Part shown: positions 10,401 to 40,574 of the stretch, in pieces
Layout: every line of letters begins with the position of its first letter
Numbering within the stretch: the stretch's first letter is position 1
Source of the DNA: Candidatus Kaiserbacteria bacterium RIFCSPHIGHO2_01_FULL_55_37
GTDB lineage: Bacteria; Patescibacteriota; Minisyncoccia; Phycocordibacterales; UBA2100
Assembly: GCA_001781175.1 (NCBI GenBank)
Contig: MFKY01000048.1
Coordinates: 1-58,477, forward strand
Reading direction: 5' to 3'
Length of the DNA stretch: 58,477 nt
Program-made: the position numbers and the translations under genes
Notes under the pieces: generated by a model
Told to the model about the DNA's origin: nothing
The model's database searches: none
Seen by the model: only the letters and a program-made list of their open reading frames with translations

Positions 10401-13400
10401 GTTTTGGAGTTGCTGCAGGTGCAGCTTCAGCGGACGGGGCCTCAGCGAACCGTCCCGTCTTCGGATCTCTCCAGCTGCCGGCGTTGGCATCCCATACCGG
10501 ACTTTCTGAAATGGGAGCCGGGCGGGCGGCTGCGACATCCTTCCCTGCCGCCCGCAGACCAACCTCGCTCGCATCCAACCCCGAAACAGCCCCGGCTCTA
10601 GCGCCGGTCACTCCCCCGCCGAGAGCATCTCCGCCCGCTGCGGCAACTCCCGATTCGGTTCCAGCCGCTAATCTGGCCTCACTTGCAAGCATGCCGATCG
10701 CGCGACCAGCTCCCGGAGCTCCCACTTCAAGCCAAATCATCGCAATGTTTCCAGCCCTGTCCGCGGCCGTCGACGGGTTGACATAGTTTTCTACTTGCTC
10801 CTTTTGCGTCAAATCTGTCCATCCTTGAAGCGCGAGCTCCACTCTGGAGCGGTCTACCAGGTCCGTTGCCCAGAACGCGCCAAATTGGCCGATGACCGAA
10901 GCCCGCGGCTGAGCTTGTTCATAAGCGGCTCGAAGCTCAGGCGACAGCGCATTGACGTCAACCGCACTACTCAACAAGGATTTCACATTGAACGCTCCCT
11001 TGATGAACTCCGAAGTGACACGCATCCCTTTTGCCAGGTAGCCTTCTTGACCGTCGGCCAACGCTTTTAACTCCGGGGTCATGTTGCCCTTCGCGACATT
11101 CGATATATCGTCTGCAATTTTATCTCTTTTTGCGGTTGCAGCATCAAGGCGGGCCTGCGCATCATCCGTTAGGTCCTTTTGCGTCAGGCCCGATGCCATA
11201 TCGATTACCGCGCTCTGATCTGCGCTTCTTGCGACCACAAGATCCTGCCTTGCCCTGTCCACTTCAAGGTCCGCTGTTTTCAAATTGCTTTCCAGGTGCG
11301 TTTTGAGATAGACAGCGCCAAGGTCAGGTGATTTATCATTTTGATCAATGTAACTTCGCAGCTCGTTATCGGCGTTACTCTTCGCATCGAGAGCTGTTTT
11401 GTAGTCGCTGATAGAGCTGCGCGCACTGTTGTTTAGCTCGGTGAACTTGTCGGTGTCTTCTTTACTCCCAAATCTATACTTCGTGATACCGTCCTTGTCG
11501 GTCGATACGTCGACTGCCCTGTTGTTGATGAAATCATTGCGCAGTTCCACGTCGTAACTGGCCTTTTTCTCGCTTTCTGAGAGAGCCCGGGCGGCTGCGT
11601 TTTGCCTGTCTTTCAAGTATTGCTCGTTGCTCGCAATAATCTTATTTTCCTCGAGCGCTTTCTGTTTGTCATATTCTTCAATAGCCACGCGTCTCTCGGC
11701 GTCGTTCGCGGCGATATCGACATTGTTGCGTGCCTCTTCAAGTTTCCTCGCCTGTTCAGCTTCGGCCGCTTTTTGATTGTCGTACTCAACGAGGGCCGCG
11801 CGTCTCTCGGCGTCGTTCGCGGCATTGTCAATATTGTTACGTGCGGCTTCGTCCGCCGCCGCTTTTTGTTTGTCATATTCGGCAAGTGCGGCAATTCGCT
11901 CGGTGTCGTTCGCGGCATTGTCAACGTTGTTTCGCGCCGCTTCGTCCAAAGCCGCCTGCTTGTCCGCCTCGTCGTACACCCTCTGCTCGTTGTCTATAAG
12001 GACGGCGAGGTCCGCGTCCCGTTTTTGCTGATCTATGACGGCTTGGTCGTCACGCTTGGCCTGTTCCCAGGCGTCGGCATTGTCGCCGGAGAGATAGTCG
12101 TTACTTGCGAAATTTTCGTTTCGCGCAACCTCGGCCCACGCGGTGTCGTTGTTGTTTGAAAAGAAATTGTTCGTGGCCAATTTATCATCGCGCGAGACTT
12201 CATCCCACGCGGCAGCGTTGTCACCAGATAAGAGATTATTGCTCGCGAGATTTTCAGTGCGAGCGACTTCGGCCCACTCGGCAAAGTTGTCGGCGGAGAG
12301 GATATCCGGCACTTTGGCCGCAGGTGAAACATCGGCGGCTAAGCTACCGGACAACCCGCCGGATAACCCGGCGCTCGTATTTACCGTCAGGTCCTGCCGG
12401 GAATACTCCGGCTGGTTCATTCGAAGCGCGTCATTCGAGGGATATTCGAGTGCGAGGCCGGATAACCCCGCGTCATTAAACATTTGCTGCCGCACCGCCT
12501 CGTCGTTGAGTTTGACCTCATTCCACGCGGCAGTGTTATCGTCGTTAAAATAGTTGTAAGCGGCCAGATTGTCGAATCCGGACGCTCCTCCCGGACCGTA
12601 TGAGTACGAGCCGCCGACAAGCGGATTGTCCTGCGGAAGCGGCACTTGGGAGACGGCCAAGGAGTCGCCCTGAAAACCGTAATTCTGCGCGACTGCCTGA
12701 TATGCGCCGATTATTTCCCGCGACGGCATTACGTCGGTCGCGCGTACGCTATGCTCGAGAAAGGCTTTCTCGTTGAATAAGTTGACTATTTGCGTTTCGT
12801 TGCCGAGATCAAGCCTGGTGTTTGGCGAGATGCCGAGCTTATCCGAAAGATAATTCACCATGCCCCTCGTGTCATTGCCATCATTGGACGGCGAAAGCCT
12901 GTTCATCAGCTTGTTGAGCGTATCGTCGCCACGATCAACCCATTTGGCAATATTATTTATGTCCGCCTTGGCCCCCTCCTCCGGCGTCGAGAACGATTGA
13001 TATCCGCTGCATATGCCGCCGCTGCAACTTTTCATGTTGCCGAAATTCCAATTCGACTCAAGCTTCCGGGCCTTCGCTTCTTCAAGTTCGCTGGGATTGA
13101 ACAACGTGCTCACCTTTTCTCTCATACAGCTCATCCAGCCGTCGCATGTCGGCGTTCCTGTAAGTTGCATTTGTTCCTTGTTTTCCGTAAACGTCGAATC
13201 CGCACCGATAAACGAATCCGTCTGCGGACCGACGGTCTGCGGAATCTCATTTCCGAAGTCGTCGTATTTCGTCGGCTGGAGCTGGAACGTATCTTGATTC
13301 GGATTTAGCGGCGCGGGCGAGAAGAAGTCGCGGATTTTGTCTATAACCCCGGGCTGCGTGTCGGCTCGTTTTAGTACCTCACCCACGGAATTTGCCGAGG

Positions 13401-13911
13401 GGGGGGGAGTATCCTTTTGTTCGGCGAGCGGCGTCGGATTGAAGAGCGCCTGATCCACCAACGACTGGTTCGTACCCGGCGGTATGGGATTCTGCGGCAG
13501 CCCGCCGCTTACGTCCCCCCTATCGGAAAGCGAAGGTGGCGGTACGACCGCCGGCGGTGGTGTATCTCCGTACACGGCCTTTTTGACATCCTCGACTTTA
13601 ATCGGCGGCAAGGCACAGGGCTTGTCGTCGCAGAGATCCGCTTTGCAGTTTTTCGGTCCCTCACAGTGTCCTTTGGCTGCGACATCTTTATTCTCAAGAG
13701 AGATGCATGTCTTGCCGTACAAATTTGGTTTGCCATCGATGACCTTTCCACCGCCCTTAACGTATACATAAAAGCTCTGCGACGGACAGTCGAGATTGCC
13801 GTCGGAATTACCCTCCGCATCGACTGGTGCCGCATATACAGTCGTCGAAAAAGCGAACAGGAGCAAGGCGCACAGAGGTACGAGAAAAATTACCCGCAGG
13901 GCGGTCGGCAT
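7483..13911 (-). CDS. Giant repetitive surface protein (~2140 aa)
   Basis: The ORF opens at GTG 13953, but its first 14 codons overlap the groEL terminator hairpin. Met at 13911 precedes the anchor PTALRVIFLVPLCALLLFAFSTTVYA. Contents: six-Cys module, SLT-like motif, several tandem repeat families, Pro-rich spacers, a second TM helix (MWGVVGGLTAWVYF, ~8150-8215), a PT linker and a C-terminal Ig-like domain (7483-7740). Confidence 0.85.
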   Translation of the reverse strand: MPTALRVIFLVPLCALLLFAFSTTVYAAPVDAEGNSDGNLDCPSQSFYVYVKGGGKVIDGKPNLYGKTCISLENKDVAAKGHCEGPKNCKADLCDDKPCALPPIKVEDVKKAVYGDTPPPAVVPPPSLSDRGDVSGGLPQNPIPPGTNQSLVDQALFNPTPLAEQKDTPPPSANSVGEVLKRADTQPGVIDKIRDFFSPAPLNPNQDTFQLQPTKYDDFGNEIPQTVGPQTDSFIGADSTFTENKEQMQLTGTPTCDGWMSCMREKVSTLFNPSELEEAKARKLESNWNFGNMKSCSGGICSGYQSFSTPEEGAKADINNIAKWVDRGDDTLNKLMNRLSPSNDGNDTRGMVNYLSDKLGISPNTRLDLGNETQIVNLFNEKAFLEHSVRATDVMPSREIIGAYQAVAQNYGFQGDSLAVSQVPLPQDNPLVGGSYSYGPGGASGFDNLAAYNYFNDDNTAAWNEVKLNDEAVRQQMFNDAGLSGLALEYPSNDALRMNQPEYSRQDLTVNTSAGLSGGLSGSLAADVSPAAKVPDILSADNFAEWAEVARTENLASNNLLSGDNAAAWDEVSRDDKLATNNFFSNNNDTAWAEVARNENFASNDYLSGDNADAWEQAKRDDQAVIDQQKRDADLAVLIDNEQRVYDEADKQAALDEAARNNVDNAANDTERIAALAEYDKQKAAADEAARNNIDNAANDAERRAALVEYDNQKAAEAEQARKLEEARNNVDIAANDAERRVAIEEYDKQKALEENKIIASNEQYLKDRQNAAARALSESEKKASYDVELRNDFINNRAVDVSTDKDGITKYRFGSKEDTDKFTELNNSARSSISDYKTALDAKSNADNELRSYIDQNDKSPDLGAVYLKTHLESNLKTADLEVDRARQDLVVARSADQSAVIDMASGLTQKDLTDDAQARLDAATAKRDKIADDISNVAKGNMTPELKALADGQEGYLAKGMRVTSEFIKGAFNVKSLLSSAVDVNALSPELRAAYEQAQPRASVIGQFGAFWATDLVDRSRVELALQGWTDLTQKEQVENYVNPSTAADRAGNIAMIWLEVGAPGAGRAIGMLASEARLAAGTESGVAAAGGDALGGGVTGARAGAVSGLDASEVGLRAAGKDVAAARPAPISESPVWDANAGSWRDPKTGRFAEAPSAEAAPAATPKPVEPVRIPTEAELDRAAVERMAGEGPTPVKTPAAEPVAPKAVEPAAPAPEVASAAEKPWYQRLRESIFGKSETPPAAVEVPRPVEPAPRISEPVRAPTQAELDQAAVERMAGEGPTPVKTLASAPESTIGRSYPVSSDSPVRSVAAVPLDDAIATKTLTNGQPDTVTLYRGINQKYDPNFAGPDPFFTPDKNEAVRYALRNGGSEQEIVAIQVDKNALRDLQAYRELEGASGGRPPGFGEQTNGYVQVPQDWIAPGTKTPSLTAEIEGAGSRLQQITKGYNDEANAAISARGAAGQRVEFDYKAAGGDWSKLSSAEKRALIESNPDYIAAQQRVDIVAANEKQAVKKLAKEYFPPAPTDVVPAAEKSWLGKKWEDLKSSFGYGENPPVVETPKAAVAPETVPAPKVDAPAPRVEPAPPEIAPTPKPAEAPAARAEPAPVETIPPAPAAESKSWWQWTKERLGLSEKPPVAEPPAAAETPKAAVVPESAPAPKVDAPAPRVEPAPAEVAPAPKAVEPVPPTPELATAPEKSWWQGMKERLGFSEKPPAQAPLTQAERDALVAGDQGPVVERAAAAPRSAEPPAPKAEPAPAETTPPARAATEPAPIEPVKRGSGDVSRPNAEITMGDEGPVALRSGAENPSGKVWNDRTLTRDEFIADYKAVYPKTSLTDAQLAERYAAGKRLNPQTGQLKVPETPAPAAATTPAGTPAAPAVAGTPSLLSRAASWVGDNKKITMWGVVGGLTAWVYFTPPLVRAPLDSLPPENKAPAAPVPPVVEPPAKTEVPPPVVRKEVLPPVTRRDVVQTGYPDNRNGGSGDFCISSVNPVVVIPNVKPGPGCYNNPGQNSAWRTFPPMPPPPPPSTPSPTPTPTPTPTQLPVSPKPTPTPTSTPPVLQPYATLIANPSTVLPGGKSRLIWSSVNTSGCELFAPGSVSMATTTRGSTSTLPLATTTQFTLNCSATSGATTSAQTTVTVH

Positions 13912-13924
13912 ACGTACATCATAA

Positions 13925-13955
13925 CAGTGCGACCCGCCGTTGGCGGGTCGCACTG
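13925..13955 (-). terminator. groESL operon terminator hairpin
   Basis: Perfect 14-bp stem CAGTGCGACCCGCC / GGCGGGTCGCACTG with a 3-nt loop, downstream of groEL. The U-tract is weak. Confidence 0.55.
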
Positions 13956-18521: not shown

Positions 18522-20459
18522 ATGGAACCACTGCCACCATCCAACGATTCTGGACACGCCGGAGGCGCAACTCCCGGACCGCGCCGCACTCAGAGCCCCG
18601 CACGCCCGCACCACGCCCGCCCGGGGAGCCGCCCGCCATCCCGCCCCGCAGGAAGGCCGGGGACACGGACAGGCCGGCCGGCCAGACATTTCGGTCGTCC
18701 CAATCATCCGCCGCGCCGCGGAAAAACCCGCGTCGAGCACCAGGCGCCCTCCCAACGTAAACAAGCGGGCGCTCCCATTCCACCCCCCTCACCCGACACC
18801 GTGCGCATTATTCCTTTGGGCGGCGTCGAAGAGATAGGACGCAACATGACGGCCGTGGAATTCGGCGACGATATTTTCATCCTCGACTGCGGATTCGCCT
18901 TCTCCGAAGGAGAAACCCCGGGCATCGATTACATCCTGCCGAACACCGGCTACCTCGAGGAGCGCCGCGACAAGATCCGCGGTCTGCTCATCGGACACGG
19001 TCACCTCGACCACATCGGCGGCATCCCCTACATCATCGACCGCATCGGCAACCCGACCATCTACACGCGCAAACTTACGGGCATGATGATAAAGAAGCGC
19101 CAGGAAGAATTCACGCAGACATCGCCCGTGAACATCCGCGAAGTAGAGAGGGACGAAGTCATCAAGCTCGGCGCCGCGACGATACGATTTTTCGGCGTCA
19201 CGCACACAGTGCCTGATTCGATGGGCATCATCATCGAGACCCCGTGGGGCGACGTGGTGTATACCGGAGACATCAAGTTGAACCACCTCGACGGCGAGCC
19301 GTCGGCCGAGGAGAAGCGCGAATTCGGTATATTCAAGAACCGCAAAGTACTCGCCCTGCTCATGGACAGCACGAACGTCTGGCAGCCGGGATTCTCTATT
19401 CCTGAATCAACTGTCTACACCACTCTCGAAAAAATAATCAAAGATTCAAAAGGCCGGCTTGTTATCGCGATGTTCGCTTCCCACTTGGAGCGGCTCATCC
19501 GCGTCGTGCATTTTGCCGAGGAGTACGGCAAAAAAATCGTCATCGACGGACGCAGTATGCGCACCAACATCGAGATAGCGCGGGAAATAGGTATCATCAA
19601 ATACAAAGATGACACCGTCGTCGCCGTCGAGAACATGAATCAATATCCGCCGGAACGGCTCATCATCCTTGCGACAGGCGCTCAGGGAGACGAGTTCGCA
19701 TCGCTCGCCCGCATCGGCAACAAGACGCACAAATACATCCGTCTTCAGCCGACCGATACCGTCGTGCTCTCTTCGTCGGTCATTCCCGGCAACGAGCGCG
19801 CAGTGCAAAAGCTCAAAGACAACCTCTCGCGTCAGGGAGCACATATCATCACCTACCACGCCTCCGATGTGCATGCATCCGGCCACGGCAACCGCGAAGA
19901 AGCGGCATGGATACACAGCCAAATAAGGCCGAAATTCTTCATCCCCGTTCACGGGTATCACTACATGTTGCGTGTGCACGCCGACCTCGCCGTCGAAATG
20001 GGTGTCAAATCGGAGAACATTTGTATCCCCGACAACAGCTCCATCATTGAGATAAAAAATGCCGAGAAGATATTGAAGCATGCGCTCAAAGCACCTGCAG
20101 AACTGCGCGTCGTTGAAGGCACGACCGTCTCGGAACTCTCCGATGTCCTGATGCGTGACAGAAAAGCGCTCGGTCAGGAAGGCTTCTGTGTCGTCGTCGC
20201 GACGGTAGACCGTCGCACGGGCAAGCTCCACAAATCCCCCGACATCATCTCGCGCGGGTTCGTCTATCTGCGCGACAACAAAGACCTCATGGACCAGACG
20301 CGTCTCATCATCCGCAAATCAGTAGAGACGTCGCTGCGCAACCCGCGAGCCGCAGACCTCGACGCCGCAAGAGAAGACCTAGCCGACGCGGTTTCCCAAT
20401 TCCTGTTACAACGTACAATGAAAAGACCTATTGTTATCCCCGTAATAGTCAGTATCTAA
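18522..20459 (+). CDS. rnj: Ribonuclease J (beta-CASP metallo-beta-lactamase) with Arg/Pro-rich N-terminal extension
   Basis: IGHGHLDHIGGIPY, a beta-CASP region and HASGHG. About 90 aa of R/P-rich leader precede the conserved VRIIPLGG start. Confidence 0.9.
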   Translation: MEPLPPSNDSGHAGGATPGPRRTQSPARPHHARPGSRPPSRPAGRPGTRTGRPARHFGRPNHPPRRGKTRVEHQAPSQRKQAGAPIPPPSPDTVRIIPLGGVEEIGRNMTAVEFGDDIFILDCGFAFSEGETPGIDYILPNTGYLEERRDKIRGLLIGHGHLDHIGGIPYIIDRIGNPTIYTRKLTGMMIKKRQEEFTQTSPVNIREVERDEVIKLGAATIRFFGVTHTVPDSMGIIIETPWGDVVYTGDIKLNHLDGEPSAEEKREFGIFKNRKVLALLMDSTNVWQPGFSIPESTVYTTLEKIIKDSKGRLVIAMFASHLERLIRVVHFAEEYGKKIVIDGRSMRTNIEIAREIGIIKYKDDTVVAVENMNQYPPERLIILATGAQGDEFASLARIGNKTHKYIRLQPTDTVVLSSSVIPGNERAVQKLKDNLSRQGAHIITYHASDVHASGHGNREEAAWIHSQIRPKFFIPVHGYHYMLRVHADLAVEMGVKSENICIPDNSSIIEIKNAEKILKHALKAPAELRVVEGTTVSELSDVLMRDRKALGQEGFCVVVATVDRRTGKLHKSPDIISRGFVYLRDNKDLMDQTRLIIRKSVETSLRNPRAADLDAAREDLADAVSQFLLQRTMKRPIVIPVIVSI

Positions 20460-20472
20460 GCGCATCGACTTG

Positions 20473-20502
20473 CCCCGTTAGAAGCGAAGCTTTCTAATGG
20501 GG
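20473..20502 (+). repeat. Short-form CCCCG...CGGGG hairpin (family A)
   Basis: CCCCGTTAGAAGC-gaa-GCTTTCTAATGGGG forms about 13 bp with one G-U pair and one bulge. It starts 13 nt after the rnj stop. Confidence 0.75.
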
Positions 20503-20543
20503 TGAGGCGCCCTATCGTGATTCCGGTGATCGTCAGCGTTTGA
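20502..20543 (+). other. Ghost (recoded) copy of the RNase J C-terminal 13 codons plus stop
   Basis: GTG AGG CGC CCT ATC GTG ATT CCG GTG ATC GTC AGC GTT TGA = VRRPIVIPVIVSV*, in frame with rnj, which ends MKRPIVIPVIVSI*. Confidence 0.8.
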
Positions 20544-31172: not shown

Positions 31173-31261
31173 CGCGACAGTATTGCATCCCGCCCTTTCT
31201 GGGTAAAGGGTGGGATTGCACGAACGAAATGACCTTGCTAGAATGCTCGCACACACCCCAT

Positions 31262-31396
31262 ACGTATCAAGAGTGCGACGAGAGTTCCGGCTTTATGACT
31301 CGCCAGCAACCTGCCGAAGGTAAGGTGCTCCATCCGGCCCCTAGCGGGAAGATGCTTTTGTCGAAAGAATCTCCCTATAAGGGAGATATTGTTTAT
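31262..31396 (+). promoter_or_regulatory. SAM-I (S-box) riboswitch with terminator, upstream of metK
   Basis: UAUCAAGAG...GAGAG..GGC..UGA..C.CAGCAACC...AGGUGCUC..CC...AGAUG follows the S-box core order. Terminator: ATCTCCCT-ata-AGGGAGAT (31369-31387) plus a T-rich tail. An extended -10 box TGCTAGAAT sits at 31236-31244. Confidence 0.75.
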
Positions 31397-31448: not shown

Positions 31449-32504
31449 ATGTTCCACTTACTCGAACGATATACCGTTGAGAGCGTCACGTGCGGACACC
31501 CTGACAAAGTGTGTGACCAGATGTCCGACGCGATTCTTGATGCGATGCTCGCACAGGACCCTTTTAGCCGCGCGGGAGTAGAGACCTTCGGCAGCCACGG
31601 CACGCTCATGATAGGCGGTGAAGTGAAAACAAAAGCGAAAATAGATTTCGAAAAGATAGCGCGCAAAGTGTATAAAGACATCGGATACACCGAGAAGCTT
31701 GAGGTGTTTGTGCGCGTCGCGCAGCAATCCCCTGACATCGCGATGGGAGTGGATACGGGAGGCGCAGGAGACCAAGGCATCATGTACGGCTACGCGACGA
31801 ACGAGACAAAAGAATATTTGCCGAAAGGCGTCGTACTTGCGCACGCGCTCGCGAGACGGCTCGAAAAGTTGCGCCGCGACGGCACGCTTAAATGGCTCAA
31901 GCCCGACGGCAAGACGCAGGTGACCATTTCAAAAGGCAAAGTTATCACTGCGCTTTGCTCCACGCAGCACGACAAAAAAGTCTCGCAGGAAGAGATACGT
32001 AAGCAGCTCATTAAGCACCTCTTCACGCCTATACTCGGCTCGCTCAAAAATATCGAGATACTCGTCAATCCAACGGGGCGGTTTGTGCAAGGAGGATTTG
32101 AAGCCGATGCGGGGCTCACGGGCCGCAAAATCCAAGTAGACACCTACGGTGGGCTTATGCCACACGGTGGCGGCTGTTTCTCGGGTAAGGAGCCGATGAA
32201 GGTGGACCGCTCGGCCGCATACATGTGCCGTTTTGTCGCGAAGAACCTCGTCGCAAACGGCTATGCCAAGAAAGCGCTGGTATCGGTCGCCTACGCTATC
32301 GGCCGCGCGGAGCCCGTCATGATAGAGGCGTTCGACGAGAAAGGTAAGAACCTAACCCACATCGTGACCAAGAATTTCGATTTCCGCCCGCAAGCAATCA
32401 TCGAACGGCTGGACCTGCGCCGCCCCATCTACAAAGAAACCGCCGCCTATGGCCACTTCGGAGTAGCGGGAAGACCATGGGAGAAGATTGTGAAGCTTAA
32501 GTAA
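31449..32504 (+). CDS. metK: S-adenosylmethionine synthetase (short form, 351 aa)
   Basis: ESVTCGHPDKVCDQMSDAILD...GGAGDQGIMYGYA...VDTYGG. Confidence 0.93.
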   Translation: MFHLLERYTVESVTCGHPDKVCDQMSDAILDAMLAQDPFSRAGVETFGSHGTLMIGGEVKTKAKIDFEKIARKVYKDIGYTEKLEVFVRVAQQSPDIAMGVDTGGAGDQGIMYGYATNETKEYLPKGVVLAHALARRLEKLRRDGTLKWLKPDGKTQVTISKGKVITALCSTQHDKKVSQEEIRKQLIKHLFTPILGSLKNIEILVNPTGRFVQGGFEADAGLTGRKIQVDTYGGLMPHGGGCFSGKEPMKVDRSAAYMCRFVAKNLVANGYAKKALVSVAYAIGRAEPVMIEAFDEKGKNLTHIVTKNFDFRPQAIIERLDLRRPIYKETAAYGHFGVAGRPWEKIVKLK

Positions 32505-32591
32505 ATATTGGCCGCCCGCCTTCGCGAGGCCGCAGCCTCGCTTCGACGAGGCGAAGGCCCGTGGGAGAAAATAATCAAACTGAAAAAGTAA
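32505..32591 (+). other. Hairpin spacer plus ghost (recoded) copy of the MetK C-terminal tail
   Basis: After the TAA comes the GC-rich hairpin GCGAGGC-cgca-GCCTCGC with outer GCCTTC/GAAGGC pairing. It is followed in frame by GGC CCG TGG GAG AAA ATA ATC AAA CTG AAA AAG TAA = GPWEKIIKLKK*. The real end is RPWEKIVKLK*. Confidence 0.75.
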
Positions 32592-36399: not shown

Positions 36400-37389
36400 T
36401 TAACGGAGTAGGATGTCGGCAATATCAGCCCGAAAGATGTTGACGGCAGAGTGTATCGAGGCGGCGTCGGGTGGACGCTTTGGGTACGTACGATTCGAGA
36501 GAACGACGAACGCGACCCCGTGTTCGGGGTCAACGGCGACCGACGTTCCCGTAAAGCCCGTTTTGCCGAAAGCGCCAGTGCCGAAGTGAGAGCCCATAAA
36601 CCACGGTTCAGCTTTCTGCCAGCCCCAATGTTTCCTCGCGCCGCCCATCACTGCCGGAAGCTTGCCTTGGAGTAATGCTTCGAGAAAATTGAGTGTATCG
36701 GGTGCGGTCGAGAATAATCCGGCGTGGCCGACGGCGCGATGCCGGGCAGAGAATACGCGCGCGCTTTCGTCGTGAACGACGCCGCAAACCTCTTGGCCGC
36801 CAACAACTTCAGTCGGGGGAATCCGTGAAATATCCGCGGAAAAAAACGTCGTGTCCTTCATGCCAAGTGACCCGAAGAAATATTTCCGCGCGAGAGCATC
36901 GAGCGTGTCGCCTGTCACCCGTTCGAGAACAACGCCGAGTAAGAATGCCGGAATGTTCGTATACAAATGTTTCCCGGGCGGACCATCAAATCCGCGCTCA
37001 AACACGTGCGAAAGCACCTCATCGGGCGTCTTATCTTTCAGCGTCGAGAGCTGCGGCCCGCGGACGCGATAGGTCAGCAAATTTTCGATGGTCGCGCCAT
37101 AGTCATTCTTCAGCTCCGGCAAATATTTCACTACTTTATCCGCGGGCCGCAATTTCCCCTCTCCCATCAACGTGAGCGCGAGCGATGCCGTGGGGATGGA
37201 CTTGGTTATAGAGGCGAGGTCGTAGACCGTGTCTTCGCAAACCACCGGAGAATCCAACTCATACGTAAAACGCCCGAACGGCGAAATCTCGCGTTCCCCA
37301 CCGGCACGAACAACGCCGATAACGCAGCCGGGAAATACTTTTTCCTGTATTGCACGGAGAGAGCTCTCCGCTATCGTTTCTTGTATCAT
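36400..37389 (-). CDS. Serine hydrolase, beta-lactamase/PBP4*-like family
   Basis: S-x-x-K motif in DLASITKSIP, with class C-like overall length and pattern. Confidence 0.85.
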   Translation of the reverse strand: MIQETIAESSLRAIQEKVFPGCVIGVVRAGGEREISPFGRFTYELDSPVVCEDTVYDLASITKSIPTASLALTLMGEGKLRPADKVVKYLPELKNDYGATIENLLTYRVRGPQLSTLKDKTPDEVLSHVFERGFDGPPGKHLYTNIPAFLLGVVLERVTGDTLDALARKYFFGSLGMKDTTFFSADISRIPPTEVVGGQEVCGVVHDESARVFSARHRAVGHAGLFSTAPDTLNFLEALLQGKLPAVMGGARKHWGWQKAEPWFMGSHFGTGAFGKTGFTGTSVAVDPEHGVAFVVLSNRTYPKRPPDAASIHSAVNIFRADIADILLR

Positions 37390-38225
37390 TGTGGCGTCAA
37401 ACGATAGAGTATTACTTTGAGTTTCATATTGCCGATCGTATCCACGACCATTTCTTTTTCATCGGCAATCTCGATTGCATATCCGTATTTAGCTGCTTCA
37501 CCTCGAATAATATCGTGCCGTACCATTTCGCTCGCCCCTAACAATATCTCTCCTTGCGGGTTGAGATGGTCGCGTCCCTCCCGTATGAATCTTCGCAGCG
37601 CCTCATACTGCTTATCGAGTCCCGCTCGAAGTTGCATGACTTTTTCCGGTGTTATTGGCATGTCGTGCTGCTTTAGTATTTCTTCGATATCTTGATCAGG
37701 AGCATTCCATGGAAAATTCCAAAACAGGATGTCGAACTTCTCGTCCTTGCCAACTCCTGAAAACACATTGCCTTCCCGTACGCTGAAAAAGGGCTCTTTC
37801 AAGGCATATTGTTCGGCATTGGTCTTACAGTTGTCGACAGCTAGCGGCGAGATATCAGTCGCAACTACTCGGGTCGGCTCGCCGTGCTGTGCGACGTATA
37901 TCGCAGCAATTCCCGTACCTGTGCCCATATCGAGAAACGATTTTCCACGTGACTGAGCAGCAATATATGTCGGCCACGCCAATCCGATGTTGACATGTTC
38001 AGGAGAGTACACATATTTCTTGATGATGAAGTGATCAAGCCCTGGTAGGTCGACGACAATTTGTCCGCGCTCGGCGAAACGCGGGTCATTCTCCTGTCCG
38101 TCGTACATTCTTATAACGTACTCAAGAAATTGCCTTCGATTCTCATCTATCGGCGGATACTCGTAGCCATCATCGTTCGGCTTATTTTGAGGAGGATGGA
38201 ACCTCTGTAACCCATCGAGCATCAT
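37386..38225 (-). CDS. Class I SAM-dependent methyltransferase (HemK/RsmC-like, NFPW motif)
   Basis: FLDMGTGTGIAAIY (motif I), VVATDIS, and FDILFWNFPW, an NPPY-like motif IV. Start placed at MMLDG. The upstream part of the ORF overlaps the ghost tail. Confidence 0.75.
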   Translation of the reverse strand: MMLDGLQRFHPPQNKPNDDGYEYPPIDENRRQFLEYVIRMYDGQENDPRFAERGQIVVDLPGLDHFIIKKYVYSPEHVNIGLAWPTYIAAQSRGKSFLDMGTGTGIAAIYVAQHGEPTRVVATDISPLAVDNCKTNAEQYALKEPFFSVREGNVFSGVGKDEKFDILFWNFPWNAPDQDIEEILKQHDMPITPEKVMQLRAGLDKQYEALRRFIREGRDHLNPQGEILLGASEMVRHDIIRGEAAKYGYAIEIADEKEMVVDTIGNMKLKVILYRLTPQ

Positions 38226-38227
38226 AG

Positions 38228-38324
38228 CTACGCGTCCGGGTAGGCATCCTTTATCTCTTTTGCGAGGTATGGATTCCACCCCGCAGTGAAGCAAAGCTTA
38301 CTACGGGGCAGGCATGGCACCCGT
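38228..38324 (-). other. Short-form family-B hairpin plus ghost (recoded) copy of the DHOD-like C-terminal 16 codons
   Basis: Read on the minus strand: TAA, 16 nt, CCCCGTAGTAAGC-ttt-GCTTCACTGCGGGG, then TGG AAT CCA TAC CTC GCA AAA GAG ATA AAG GAT GCC TAC CCG GAC GCG TAG = WNPYLAKEIKDAYPDA*. The ghost stop is 2 nt from the methyltransferase ATG. Confidence 0.8.
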
Positions 38325-39401
38325 TTATGCGTCTGGGTATGCATCTTTGATTTCCTTAGCCAAATAAGGATTCCACATGGCTCCGGTCGCCGTCATAACG
38401 ACATCGGCACCCGCTTCGCGGTACTCTTTGAAATCTTTTGGGGTGACCACACCGCCGACGCCGACTATCTTCCACGTGCCGCCGGTCTTCGTGCGGACCG
38501 CGGCAAGGCGGCGCGTCATGTCGAGGCCCGCCCACTTGATAGCCGTACCGCACACACCGCTGCGCATACGCATAGGACTGCCCGGCAGTGCCTGCTCCCC
38601 TTTTTCGTTCACGATGGGCGCCGATATTGTGTTGATGGCGGATATCGCATGAGCGTACCTCCCGGCGATTTTTGCGAGGTGTTCGATATCCGCGTCACTG
38701 CTGTAATAGCCGACCTTGAGAATGAGCGGGAGTTTTTTTATCTTCGCGCGTATCGCTTCGCACACACGCTCCGTCATGTGGAGGTTGTAGCAGACCAAGC
38801 CTTCGTTGCCGATGTTGGGACACGAAAGATTTGCCTCAAGGATGGGTGCACCGGTGCGAGCGGCAAGTGCCGCCGCTTGCGCGAAATCCGCGACGAACTC
38901 ATCCGCAGTCTGACCCTCCTTCACCGTGCCCATGAAACTCATCACCATTGCTTGCCCCTTGCGCGCGTACAGGGCGGCCTTCTCGGCGTCTGCGAGCCAC
39001 TCTTCTGCGGGGCGTGACGGAACTCCAAAAGAATTAGTTATCGAAAGCGGCTCCCGGTAGTCCTTGTCGGCGACAAGCGGCTTCTTCGCTTTTTCGAGAG
39101 TGAGGTCGCCGTCGATATGTACCGCGAGCACATTCGGATGCGGATGGCACGGGAATTCATTTGTGCGAACGGTCTTGTACACCGCGATGTCGAATCCTTT
39201 GTCGAAAGCGCCTTTCACGAATTTACTATCGAGCAGTGGCCCCGCCGGGATACCGAGCGGATACGCGAGTCTTTGGCCGAGAAACTCGAAACGTGGATCT
39301 CCCTCGGGCAAAACGACTCCGTCAATAAAACCATTAAAGGGGCCCTTTTCAAGGTTTTCGTAGTAGGACTTTGCGGGGTCGTAGAAAGGGGCTTGTAGCA
39401 T
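38325..39401 (-). CDS. Dihydroorotate dehydrogenase-family flavoenzyme (class 1-like)
   Basis: ANLSCPNIGNEG (active-site loop) and GVGGVVTPKDFKEYREAGADVVMTATG. Confidence 0.75.
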   Translation of the reverse strand: MLQAPFYDPAKSYYENLEKGPFNGFIDGVVLPEGDPRFEFLGQRLAYPLGIPAGPLLDSKFVKGAFDKGFDIAVYKTVRTNEFPCHPHPNVLAVHIDGDLTLEKAKKPLVADKDYREPLSITNSFGVPSRPAEEWLADAEKAALYARKGQAMVMSFMGTVKEGQTADEFVADFAQAAALAARTGAPILEANLSCPNIGNEGLVCYNLHMTERVCEAIRAKIKKLPLILKVGYYSSDADIEHLAKIAGRYAHAISAINTISAPIVNEKGEQALPGSPMRMRSGVCGTAIKWAGLDMTRRLAAVRTKTGGTWKIVGVGGVVTPKDFKEYREAGADVVMTATGAMWNPYLAKEIKDAYPDA

Positions 39402-39539
39402 ACGTTCATATTATCACTCGAAAAGCGCGTTTAAAACCTTCGGATGCTAGGCGCGGAGAAAGCGGCGCGCGAGGCGTACAAGTGTACGGTGAACGCGACG
39501 CAGAGGCTCCGCAACGACGCAGGCGAAGGTTTTGACGCG

Positions 39540-40136
39540 CTATTTCCCGGCGCTGGGTATCTTCTTCCACTTGTTCGCATCCATGTGCCACTGCGATACA
39601 TTGGCTTTTTGCAGCTCATTCCAGAGTTTTTTTGCCGTCTTTGTATAGAGTTTTTTGTCTCGCACGAACTTGCGCATCGCCTTCCACTTGGCCGGCAATT
39701 TATGCCCTTGCTCCTCAAATTCTTTCAGCTCAAGGTCTATGTCGAGATTGTCCGCATCTTTCACAATTTTCGCTTCAATAGAATCGCGCTTCTTATACCG
39801 GGTATGAATAGCCTCAAGATCACCGAACGAAGTTCCGGCAAAAAGATCGTGCGCCGCACGCAGGTCATCGGTCTGCGAATACACTTTGTGGACATATGCG
39901 AGATCGGCCGTGCGCGTCTCCACAAGGTCATGCACAAGCGCCATCTTGATGATGGTGCCTTCATCACCCTTTCCTTCACGACGCGCGATAACGAGTGCCA
40001 AGAAAACGACGCGCATCATGTGCTCGAGATTACTCGCCACCGGTACGCCGAGGTGCTGTACCCAAGCCCGAGGGATATTCCGCATCGAGCCTACCTCAAA
40101 AAGAAATTCGACGTCACGATTCTTTCCGCGTTTCAT
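39540..40136 (-). CDS. HD-domain phosphohydrolase (YfbR-like)
   Basis: NLEHMMRV...ALVHDLVETRTADL. Confidence 0.8.
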   Translation of the reverse strand: MKRGKNRDVEFLFEVGSMRNIPRAWVQHLGVPVASNLEHMMRVVFLALVIARREGKGDEGTIIKMALVHDLVETRTADLAYVHKVYSQTDDLRAAHDLFAGTSFGDLEAIHTRYKKRDSIEAKIVKDADNLDIDLELKEFEEQGHKLPAKWKAMRKFVRDKKLYTKTAKKLWNELQKANVSQWHMDANKWKKIPSAGK

Positions 40137-40175
40137 TTCCGCCAGTATAGGCGCTCTGCCGATTCCTGCAAACGC

Positions 40176-40574
40176 CTACCTGGTCGCGCGCTTTATAGCA
40201 GCCTTCCCCCGTTTGGTCGCCTGTTTTGCCGCACTCTTCACCGACGCGCCGCCTTTCTTCAGTTCGGCTGCTATCTTCTGCCAATTCTTCTTCAGCTCGG
40301 AAGCGGCGCGTTCTACCTCGCCGCGGTCGAGACCACGGATGCCTTTGTAGGCGCGCGCCGATTGTTCAACGATGGCGGCTACCGCCGCACGGTCCACGTT
40401 CTTGAGCGCCTTCGCGCGTTTGACGACATCCCTTTTCATGTCTACCGCCCACTTCGCTGCTACCCGGCGGTTCTTTTTTGCGTCCTTACTTGCATAAAAA
40501 TAGTATCCCACCGCAGCCAAAGCGGCCGCTGCAAGCACACCCTTCGTTAATCGTCCTCTTCCTGTATCCGCCAT
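40176..40574 (-). CDS. Membrane-anchored YtxH-like hypothetical protein
   Basis: 132 aa with a TM helix GVLAAAALAAVGYYFY followed by a Lys/Ala-rich helical region. Confidence 0.5.
   Translation of the reverse strand: MADTGRGRLTKGVLAAAALAAVGYYFYASKDAKKNRRVAAKWAVDMKRDVVKRAKALKNVDRAAVAAIVEQSARAYKGIRGLDRGEVERAASELKKNWQKIAAELKKGGASVKSAAKQATKRGKAAIKRATR

Follow-up and report, generated by a model that had tools for sequence, protein, structure and literature searches.

We describe a displaced gene end in a 58,477-nucleotide (nt) stretch of DNA from Candidatus Kaiserbacteria bacterium RIFCSPHIGHO2_01_FULL_55_37 (GenBank assembly GCA_001781175.1, contig MFKY01000048.1, forward strand; hereafter the window). 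The last 16 codons and the stop codon of a dihydroorotate-dehydrogenase-like gene are present twice in succession: once as the translated end of the gene, and once, beyond a conserved 30-nt hairpin, as an untranslated copy that we call the ghost tail. The ghost is the resident copy, and the translated tail is the copy that looks imported. The explanation that we favor, and regard as probable though well short of certain, is that a short piece of DNA from a related bacterium of the candidate phyla radiation (CPR) recombined into the 3' end of the resident gene. The locus is one instance of a wider and apparently undescribed pattern, in which a conserved hairpin lies beside displaced gene ends in CPR bacteria.

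The dehydrogenase-like gene (38325..39401, minus strand) is listed as an open reading frame (ORF) of 358 amino acids (aa) ending in the translated tail. Its product matches the PF01180 (DHO_dh) profile in the precomputed Pfam annotation of an identical product, and the gene is a predicted member of that family. We found 223 relatives, with orthologues 52-94% identical in 80 CPR genomes (Kaiserbacteria and other CPR/Patescibacteria). Directly after an ATG codon, the translated tail reads TGG AAT CCT TAT TTG GCT AAG GAA ATC AAA GAT GCA TAC CCA GAC GCA TAA (38325..38375, minus strand). The ghost, with the same 16 codons by meaning, reads TGG AAT CCA TAC CTC GCA AAA GAG ATA AAG GAT GCC TAC CCG GAC GCG TAG (38228..38278, minus strand). 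Both encode WNPYLAKEIKDAYPDA followed by a stop, at an offset of 97 nt. Such a pair, identical at 16 of 16 residues, had been reported in a preliminary description of the window, and we find it at these coordinates. That description counted 14 differences in 51 nt, all of them silent. They are indeed all silent, but they number 13: 12 in sense codons (11 codons, as TTG/CTC counts twice) and the change from TAA to TAG. Since 28 of the 144 possible single-base changes in the ghost are silent, 12 random changes would all be silent with a probability of about 3e-9.

The other structural features noted earlier were confirmed. An identical 9-nt block, GTGGAATCC, marks the left (5') edge of both copies (38376-38368 and 38279-38271). 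The 46 non-coding nt between the copies begin with a 16-nt spacer, ACGGGTGCCATGCCTG (38309..38324, minus strand), which ends in the conserved 5' flank of a hairpin family (..GCCTG), and continue with a 30-nt member of that family, CCCCGTAGTAAGC-TTT-GCTTCACTGCGGGG (38279..38308, minus strand), which has no run of U 3' of its stem. The whole 46-nt segment has a folding energy of -23.8 kcal/mol (z = -3.3). On its GGGG side the hairpin directly adjoins the ghost, and only 2 nt separate the TAG of the ghost from the ATG of a methyltransferase gene (TAG-CT-ATG), so that the locus reads ghost, TAGCTATG, methyltransferase. At an offset of 97 nt, the ghost is not in the reading frame of the dehydrogenase gene, which rules out an origin by read-through, as had been argued, and by frameshift. 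Assembly error, which would have undone the finding, is excluded as well: the copies share only the 9-nt block, and a 221-nt region is 100% identical across five independent metagenome assemblies from the European Nucleotide Archive (ENA) and the Joint Genome Institute, covering several different samples (L001-L005; related loci are cited here by such numbers).

Comparison with relatives separates the two copies. Third-position differences to the relatives L006, L033 and L007 are 0.33, 0.37 and 0.55 in the gene body and 0.44, 0.56 and 0.31 in the ghost, and they rise to 0.75, 0.75 and 0.88 in the translated tail, whose divergence departs from that of the body with p = 7e-4, 2e-3 and 7e-3, respectively. 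The G+C content at third codon positions (GC3) is 0.67 in the body, 0.63 in the ghost and 0.375 in the translated tail, a value as low as is reached by only 3% of 16-codon windows of the body. The codon-usage log-odds are +1.5 for the ghost and -3.5 for the translated tail. The contrast between a ghost with the G/C-ending codons of the gene body and an A/T-ending translated tail, recognized in the preliminary description, is therefore upheld. Because the ghost matches the body in both divergence and codon usage and the translated tail matches in neither, the ghost is the tail that was passed down vertically, and the translated tail has the look of an import. The data thus support the earlier proposal that the ghost is the older, resident tail and that the new tail, its TAA and the hairpin make up the inserted piece.

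Weight had been placed on the silent-only pattern, but our comparison with orthologues gives no ground for reading it as a sign that the ghost is maintained. The peptide WNPYLAKEIK-x-AYPDA is near-invariant among orthologues, and their third positions are saturated; even relatives that are 94% identical differ from the window at 8-13 of the 51 tail nt. With a near-invariant C-terminus and saturated third positions, orthologous tails of different lineages are expected to differ almost only silently, and the pattern requires no selection on the ghost in place. The comparison of both copies with orthologues shows that the ghost tracks the gene body and that the translated tail is saturated at third positions, but it offers no proof of ghost upkeep. 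Decay of ghosts in relatives had been named as an outcome that would make the silent pattern a chance result. Decayed ghosts do exist at other loci, with an internal deletion (L014), a stop codon (L109), a frameshift (L167) and a Cys-to-Tyr change (L205). The silent pattern here would follow from the orthology of the two tails. Given this decay elsewhere, the clean ghost at the dehydrogenase locus is most simply read as young.

The dehydrogenase pair is the third of its kind in the window, as had been reported; the others lie at an RNase J-like gene and at metK. The spacings of the three pairs are 84, 84 and 97 nt, and the RNase J and metK ghosts are in frame. At the RNase J-like gene (18522-20459, plus strand), the pair (20424..20543, plus strand) consists of the real tail RPIVIPVIVSI*, ending at 20459, a 13-nt spacer, a family hairpin (20473-20502) and the ghost RPIVIPVIVSV* (20508-20543). 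The relatives L211 and L212 (93% and 92% protein identity) represent empty sites: each has one tail only and lacks both hairpin and ghost. Comparison at the protein level was uninformative about the native RNase J tail, as endings in ...VSI and ...VSV are both common, and the DNA of these two relatives was used instead. In the last 60 nt of the RNase J gene, GC3 is 0.35 vs 0.69 before, and the low-GC3, window-specific tract starts about 20 nt upstream of the repeat. At metK (31449-32504, plus strand), the pair (32475..32591, plus strand) consists of the real tail PWEKIVKLK*, a different GC-rich hairpin and the ghost PWEKIIKLKK*. In build, the metK hairpin resembles the family: its loop has 3 nt, and its 3' arm carries one bulge. 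Each of the three ghosts adjoins the 3' base of its hairpin and is closer to local codon usage than the corresponding translated tail. No ghost heads, that is, displaced 5' gene ends, were found in the window. An S-adenosylmethionine (SAM) riboswitch (RF00162, 45.3 bits) lies upstream of metK at 31261-31358 (plus strand).

The hairpin motif CCCCGnnnnAAGCnnnGCTTnnnnnnGGGG occurs twice in the window, each time between a tail and its ghost, and is absent from about 640 kb of related loci. A metagenome scan recovered at least 119 stretches with a family hairpin, mostly from contigs of 33-47% G+C (uncultured, CPR-like). The family consensus is (A/G)(T/G)GCCTG-CCCCGTAnnAAGCTTTGCTTTnnTTCGGGG-T. Its free stem positions pair in 81-87% of distinct sequences (CG, GC, AT, TA and GT pairs), compared with 14-57% in shifted controls; 54 of 70 sequences have a bulged T, a T.T mismatch is frequent, and CCTG or CTTG precedes 43 of 88 family hairpins. 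Copy number is low, at two in 58 kb and about one per fished locus. Rfam yielded no covariance-model match at the hairpin locus, the SAM riboswitch being the only match in the window, and a literature search for the hairpin sequence found nothing. The Pfam scans, which covered all but about ten small or unannotated ORFs and a 2156-aa gene, detected no recombinase, transposase, nuclease, integrase or reverse transcriptase among the window ORFs covered.

Several known classes of element can be set aside for this hairpin. It is not an intrinsic (rho-independent) terminator: the stem is followed by TGGAATCC with no run of U, and the terminator scan does not list it. Integron attC sites and repetitive extragenic palindromes (REPs) with their associated tyrosine transposases (RAYTs) offer a likeness, as imperfect hairpins with conserved ends, a covarying stem, an extrahelical base and a fixed polarity. 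Unlike attC, the family hairpin ends in CCCCG/CGGGG, is 30 nt long and lacks RYYYAAC/GTTRRRY boxes, with neither IntI nor any other integrase in the Pfam scans of the window. Its copy number, with none in the related loci, is far below that of REPs; GTAG lies inside the stem, and no RAYT or other Y1 transposase was seen among the scanned window ORFs. A diversity-generating retroelement, with its variable and template repeats, was likewise rejected: of the 13 differences, no more than 4 coincide with an A in the ghost, all are silent, and no reverse transcriptase was seen in the scanned ORFs.

Displaced gene ends recur next to the hairpin at other loci. Stop-anchored ghost tails were found at 5 of 34 ORF ends with a sense hairpin within 60 nt, vs 5 of 2586 control ORF ends (p = 6.5e-8). 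Where a hairpin downstream of an ORF was antisense, a ghost was present in 0 of 23 cases, vs 6 of 34 with sense hairpins (p = 0.037). An initial control based on flanking peptide repeats at random positions did not discriminate (9.1% vs 5.4%) and was replaced by the stop-anchored ORF-end test. Ghost tails belong to a gene ending in VTMIRETRIIEFAR* (L118) and to genes for RNase J (L112), PGK (L194), YchF (L164) and XerD-like proteins (L139, L206), with one more at L098. In L118, 10 of 13 changeable codons differ, all silently, and in the tail cases with a measured ghost stop, that stop lies 54-101 nt past the real one. Ghost heads, on the opposite strand, accompany the genes for EF-G (L178) and TsaD (L154) and ten loci of a cysteine-rich gene of about 580 aa. 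Displaced RNA-gene ends comprise the 3' ends of tRNA-Pro (L141) and tRNA-Ala (L197) and the 5' end of a 5S rRNA (L132). The tRNA and 5S ghosts differ from the real ends at paired stem regions, which argues for descent from another orthologue rather than for local drift. The order real gene end, spacer, hairpin and ghost abutting the GGGG side holds in 23 of 24 cases, the exception being L197; the arrangement thus recurs with the same polarity whether a head, a tail or an RNA-gene end is involved. Over nine real/ghost pairs (from the window, L118, L112, L194, L098, L164 and L178), 19 of 83 codon pairs for the same amino acid are identical, vs 28.6-32.3 expected for independent encodings (p = 0.013-0.001). 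This deficit could reflect either the loss of pairs that were too similar or opposite codon biases of donor and recipient.

The cysteine-rich CPR gene (MEYKSQNVVCQNCKG...; L143, L167, L207, L109, L177, L203, L093, L103, L155 and L205) is preceded by an antisense family hairpin, 17 nt before the ATG, and by a more distant ghost N-terminus that in every case ends at the Cys-Gln codons, TGC CA(G AA). The head types swap roles between imported and ghost from locus to locus. Across these loci, nucleotide identity falls from 0.94 in the hairpin to 0.78 in the spacer, 0.73 in the head and 0.63 in the body.

In Daviesbacteria, the dehydrogenase gene itself has another kind of insertion at its tail, where a vapBC-like pair lies between the real tail and a ghost and no family hairpin is present (L029, L014). 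L029 has three successive tails (5012-8110) with the vapBC pair and a 685-aa gene between them, and a 20-nt identical block marks the left edge of two of these tails. L014 (5009-5850) has one decayed ghost, and L018 looks like the empty site for its vapBC insertion. The same cassette follows the dehydrogenase stop in L021 and L025, where no ghost reached the scan threshold. The vapBC loci with a ghost show that gene-end displacement can happen without this hairpin. On a 786-nt ENA contig (P0167), a 62-aa ORF begins like a short-chain dehydrogenase and continues, from a shared AGADVV motif, as the tail of the dehydrogenase gene (…AGADVVMTATGAMWNPYLAKEIKAQYPDA); this fusion could be another displaced tail or an assembly chimera.

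In relatives, the gene order at the locus is HD-domain gene, dehydrogenase gene, beta-lactamase-like gene and glmS, and the dehydrogenase gene often overlaps its ancestral partner, the beta-lactamase-like gene, by 8 nt (ATGCTTAA). In the window, a 279-aa SAM-dependent methyltransferase gene (37386..38225, minus strand) separates the dehydrogenase gene from the beta-lactamase-like serine hydrolase gene (36400..37389, minus strand); its ATG at 38225 agrees with the N-termini of homologues. The methyltransferase was not found in any of the 80 related loci. Its homologues (56-73% identity) follow various genes, among them ThrRS, an Exo_endo_phos gene and TrmB-like genes, and in many cases the gap to the preceding gene is very small. 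This absence and these unrelated contexts mark it as an earlier, lineage-specific insertion. Other genes occupy the same junction in relatives: a glutamine amidotransferase-like gene in L033 (read from the N-terminal translation), a different, unannotated gene in L035 and a PfkB kinase gene in L214. A 20-nt junction, TACCCGGACGCGTAGCTATG, is common to the ghost-methyltransferase junction (window 38222-38245) and to L035 (about 5060-5095), a 61%-identical relative in which the unannotated gene lies downstream.

The preliminary description had taken the dehydrogenase and methyltransferase genes for a native, tight pair that was later split. A transient tight stage before the insertion of the hairpin is plausible from the 2-nt spacing, but the pair is not native to the lineage, where the partner is the beta-lactamase-like gene. 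Synteny in relatives did not yield the expected locus with a single tail and a 2-nt spacer, and native coupling of the two genes was found neither in the 80 related loci nor in six homologue contexts. Because the methyltransferase gene has neither a -10-like box nor a Shine-Dalgarno motif upstream, it is probably co-transcribed with the dehydrogenase gene, to which it was probably once coupled stop to start. The dehydrogenase stop now lies 99 nt upstream of the methyltransferase ATG, with a stable stem-loop without a U-run in between. A possible 30-codon relay ORF, VPCLPRSKLCFTAGWNPYLAKEIKDAYPDA* (38228..38320, minus strand), begins with GTG 4 nt after the TAA and runs through the hairpin and, in the frame of the ghost, on to the TAG; it could hand ribosomes on to the methyltransferase gene. 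Shine-Dalgarno-like motifs are rare in the window (4 of 32 gene starts), and a -10-like box precedes the ATG of many genes by 5-10 nt, a picture that suggests many leaderless mRNAs.

Under the explanation that we favor, the donor would be a related CPR bacterium, probably of lower G+C content, and the imported tract would measure at least 97 nt and perhaps about 130 nt. It would have carried the last codons of the orthologous dehydrogenase gene, the TAA, 16 nt of 3' flank and the polar 30-nt hairpin. The join on the gene side would be a homologous exchange within the coding sequence, at a variable position. The other would be non-homologous, exactly at the 3' (GGGG) edge of the hairpin and just upstream of the resident tail; microhomology there amounts to at most 1-3 nt. 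The resident tail would thereby have been displaced rather than replaced, and would persist as an untranslated ghost abutting the methyltransferase start. The two tails would differ silently as orthologues do, each having been held to a near-invariant C-terminus by purifying selection within its lineage. The recombination itself may have been homology-facilitated and illegitimate, with a DNA end defined by the hairpin, or the work of an active hairpin-directed system. Its consequence would be the loss of stop-start coupling between the dehydrogenase and methyltransferase genes, with a stem-loop now placed between them on what is probably one transcript.

The extent of the tract bears on this sequence of events. 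When the window is compared with L006 and L033, an excess of differences specific to the window sets in about 85 nt before the end of the gene, some 34 nt ahead of the repeat. The breakpoint that fits best lies near 38409 (p = 9e-5, uncorrected), and the 39 nt before the repeat hold 7 differences vs 2.8 expected. These values suggest an imported tract that begins within the gene body, ahead of the part present twice, and that may include a segment (38376..38409, minus strand) that was not duplicated. Differences that start upstream of the repeat, by about 34 nt at the dehydrogenase gene and about 20 nt at the RNase J gene, fit a homologous crossover in the body and do not fit a target-site duplication.

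Several points weigh against import from a relative. The upstream extension is suggestive only, because it rests on few sites and the 39-nt segment taken alone gives p of about 0.02-0.04. The RNase J tails do not themselves show which copy is nearer to the relatives. Position 11 is Asp in both dehydrogenase tails and Glu in the closest relatives, which calls for a fairly close donor or a coincidence. No donor with the same tail, spacer and hairpin was found: the tails of 18 orthologues are each at least 10 of 51 positions away from the translated tail, a peptide query with the last 45 aa found nothing beyond short ORFs that had been mis-called, and two of these, L213 and L214, are not donors and lack the hairpin. 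Finally, passive recombination of the illegitimate type, taken alone, gives no reason for a junction at one fixed edge of a polar, conserved hairpin.

This last point leads to the view that the hairpin belongs to an active, dedicated mobile system. A gene-end cassette, made up of the hairpin and a recoded gene end, would spread from genome to genome by overwriting the ends of conserved genes; the hairpin, folded as single-stranded DNA, would be the site of cleavage or recombination, and the ghost would act as a second homology arm or guide. We keep such a system open because of the fixed polarity, the conservation of the hairpin and its use at heads, tails and RNA genes. Sequence and structure of the hairpin are both strongly conserved (bulged T, T.T mismatch, 5' GCCTG flank), and the near-uniform position of the ghost on the GGGG side, the lack of ghosts at antisense hairpins downstream of ORFs, the deficit of identical codons and the fall in identity away from the hairpin in the cysteine-rich gene all fit. 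Opposed to it are the lack of any recombinase, transposase or nuclease among the Pfam-covered ORFs of the window, the very low number of hairpins per genome, the polarity exception L197, the different hairpin at metK and the Daviesbacteria vapBC insertions, which give the same ghost architecture without the hairpin. On balance, we consider this account of the locus unlikely, if far from negligible. The corresponding general proposal, that the hairpin is the signature of an undescribed CPR mobile element that overwrites heads, tails, tRNA 3' ends and 5S rRNA 5' ends with synonymously recoded copies in a homing-like process, is tentative and only a shade more credible.

A larger integrative element, such as a prophage or island, could also have brought a replacement tail and then been lost almost entirely by deletion. 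The e14 element of Escherichia coli K-12 offers the precedent: icd continues into an element-borne tail, and the displaced native tail (icdC) lies downstream (PMC13626634). The identical 9-nt block at the left edge of both copies would fit an element of this type, as would the vapBC pair and the 685-aa gene between successive tails in L029. Yet the three spacings in the window and those of the metagenome tails are so short that deletion to the same hairpin would have to be repeated and near-total, no integrase was found in the Pfam scans made of the window, and the foreign-like stretch seems to begin some 34 nt before the 9-nt block, which a core-site crossover would not give. We regard such a remnant as improbable. 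Even less credible is a local tandem duplication in which the translated copy gained only silent changes while the ghost was constrained as the leader of the methyltransferase gene. The silence of all differences, the position of the ghost against the ATG and the lack of other initiation signals upstream of that gene are compatible with it. It would, however, require near-saturation of silent sites in one copy and no change in the other, and it conflicts with the foreign-like GC3 of the translated tail, with the excess divergence that continues upstream of the repeat, with the membership of the hairpin in a family seen in distant genomes, and with ghosts that have no coupled gene downstream (RNase J, metK). 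One may also reverse the polarity and take the ghost and the methyltransferase gene as imported and the translated tail as resident, given that the methyltransferase is a lineage-specific insertion and that L035 shares the junction GACGCGTAGCTATG ahead of a different inserted gene; since agreement with the gene body and the closest relatives is found in the ghost and not in the translated tail, we give this hardly any credence.

Import of a short tract from a relative has partial parallels in known systems. Like e14 in icd and islands in tRNA genes, the locus combines a new end with a displaced native end, and the differences are mostly silent or conservative. Unlike them, it has only 97 nt between the copies, a 46-nt non-coding spacer and no visible integrase or cargo; many different genes are affected, including their 5' ends, next to the same hairpin family, and the imported tract seems to exceed the repeat. 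At Rhs, contact-dependent inhibition and type VI secretion effector loci, according to a passage in PMC5361080 that cites Jackson et al. 2009, incoming homologous DNA brings a new 3' end and the old end is pushed downstream as an orphan. The locus shares with these a homologous junction in the conserved part, a non-homologous junction and the retention of the old end. It differs in that new and old ends are the same 16-aa peptide, with no functional diversification and no immunity gene, and in that the junction lies at a conserved hairpin. In the fungal mitochondrial genes atp6 and cob, C-terminal duplications lie next to free-standing homing endonuclease genes (PMC6279837). There too the order is gene, insert and duplicated C-terminal segment, whereas our locus has no endonuclease ORF, and what was inserted there is a 30-nt hairpin and a short flank.

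A displaced gene end is a classic mark left by integrating DNA, normally by large elements with a recombinase of their own. In the present cases the mark is accompanied only by a conserved 30-nt hairpin, and it recurs at many housekeeping and RNA genes of uncultured bacteria with small genomes. If the hairpin only marks the end of DNA that was taken up, these sites would be a direct record of very short patches of inter-species recombination in CPR bacteria, and of the breakup of tightly coupled genes by such patches. If the hairpin is active, it would represent a new, minimal mobile element and a natural case in which synonymous recoding stabilizes a duplicated segment. In practical terms, such ghosts and hairpins can lead astray gene callers, operon prediction and analyses of nonsynonymous to synonymous substitution ratios (dN/dS).

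Two further features of the window were noted. The 2156-aa gene (7483-13953, minus strand) contains internal direct repeats with periods of 261-267, 204, 111 and 93 nt, located at 8891-9234, 10038-10356 and 11591-11946. A 368-aa ORF (39444-40550, plus strand), antisense to both the HD-domain gene and a gene for a small membrane protein, is probably not a gene.

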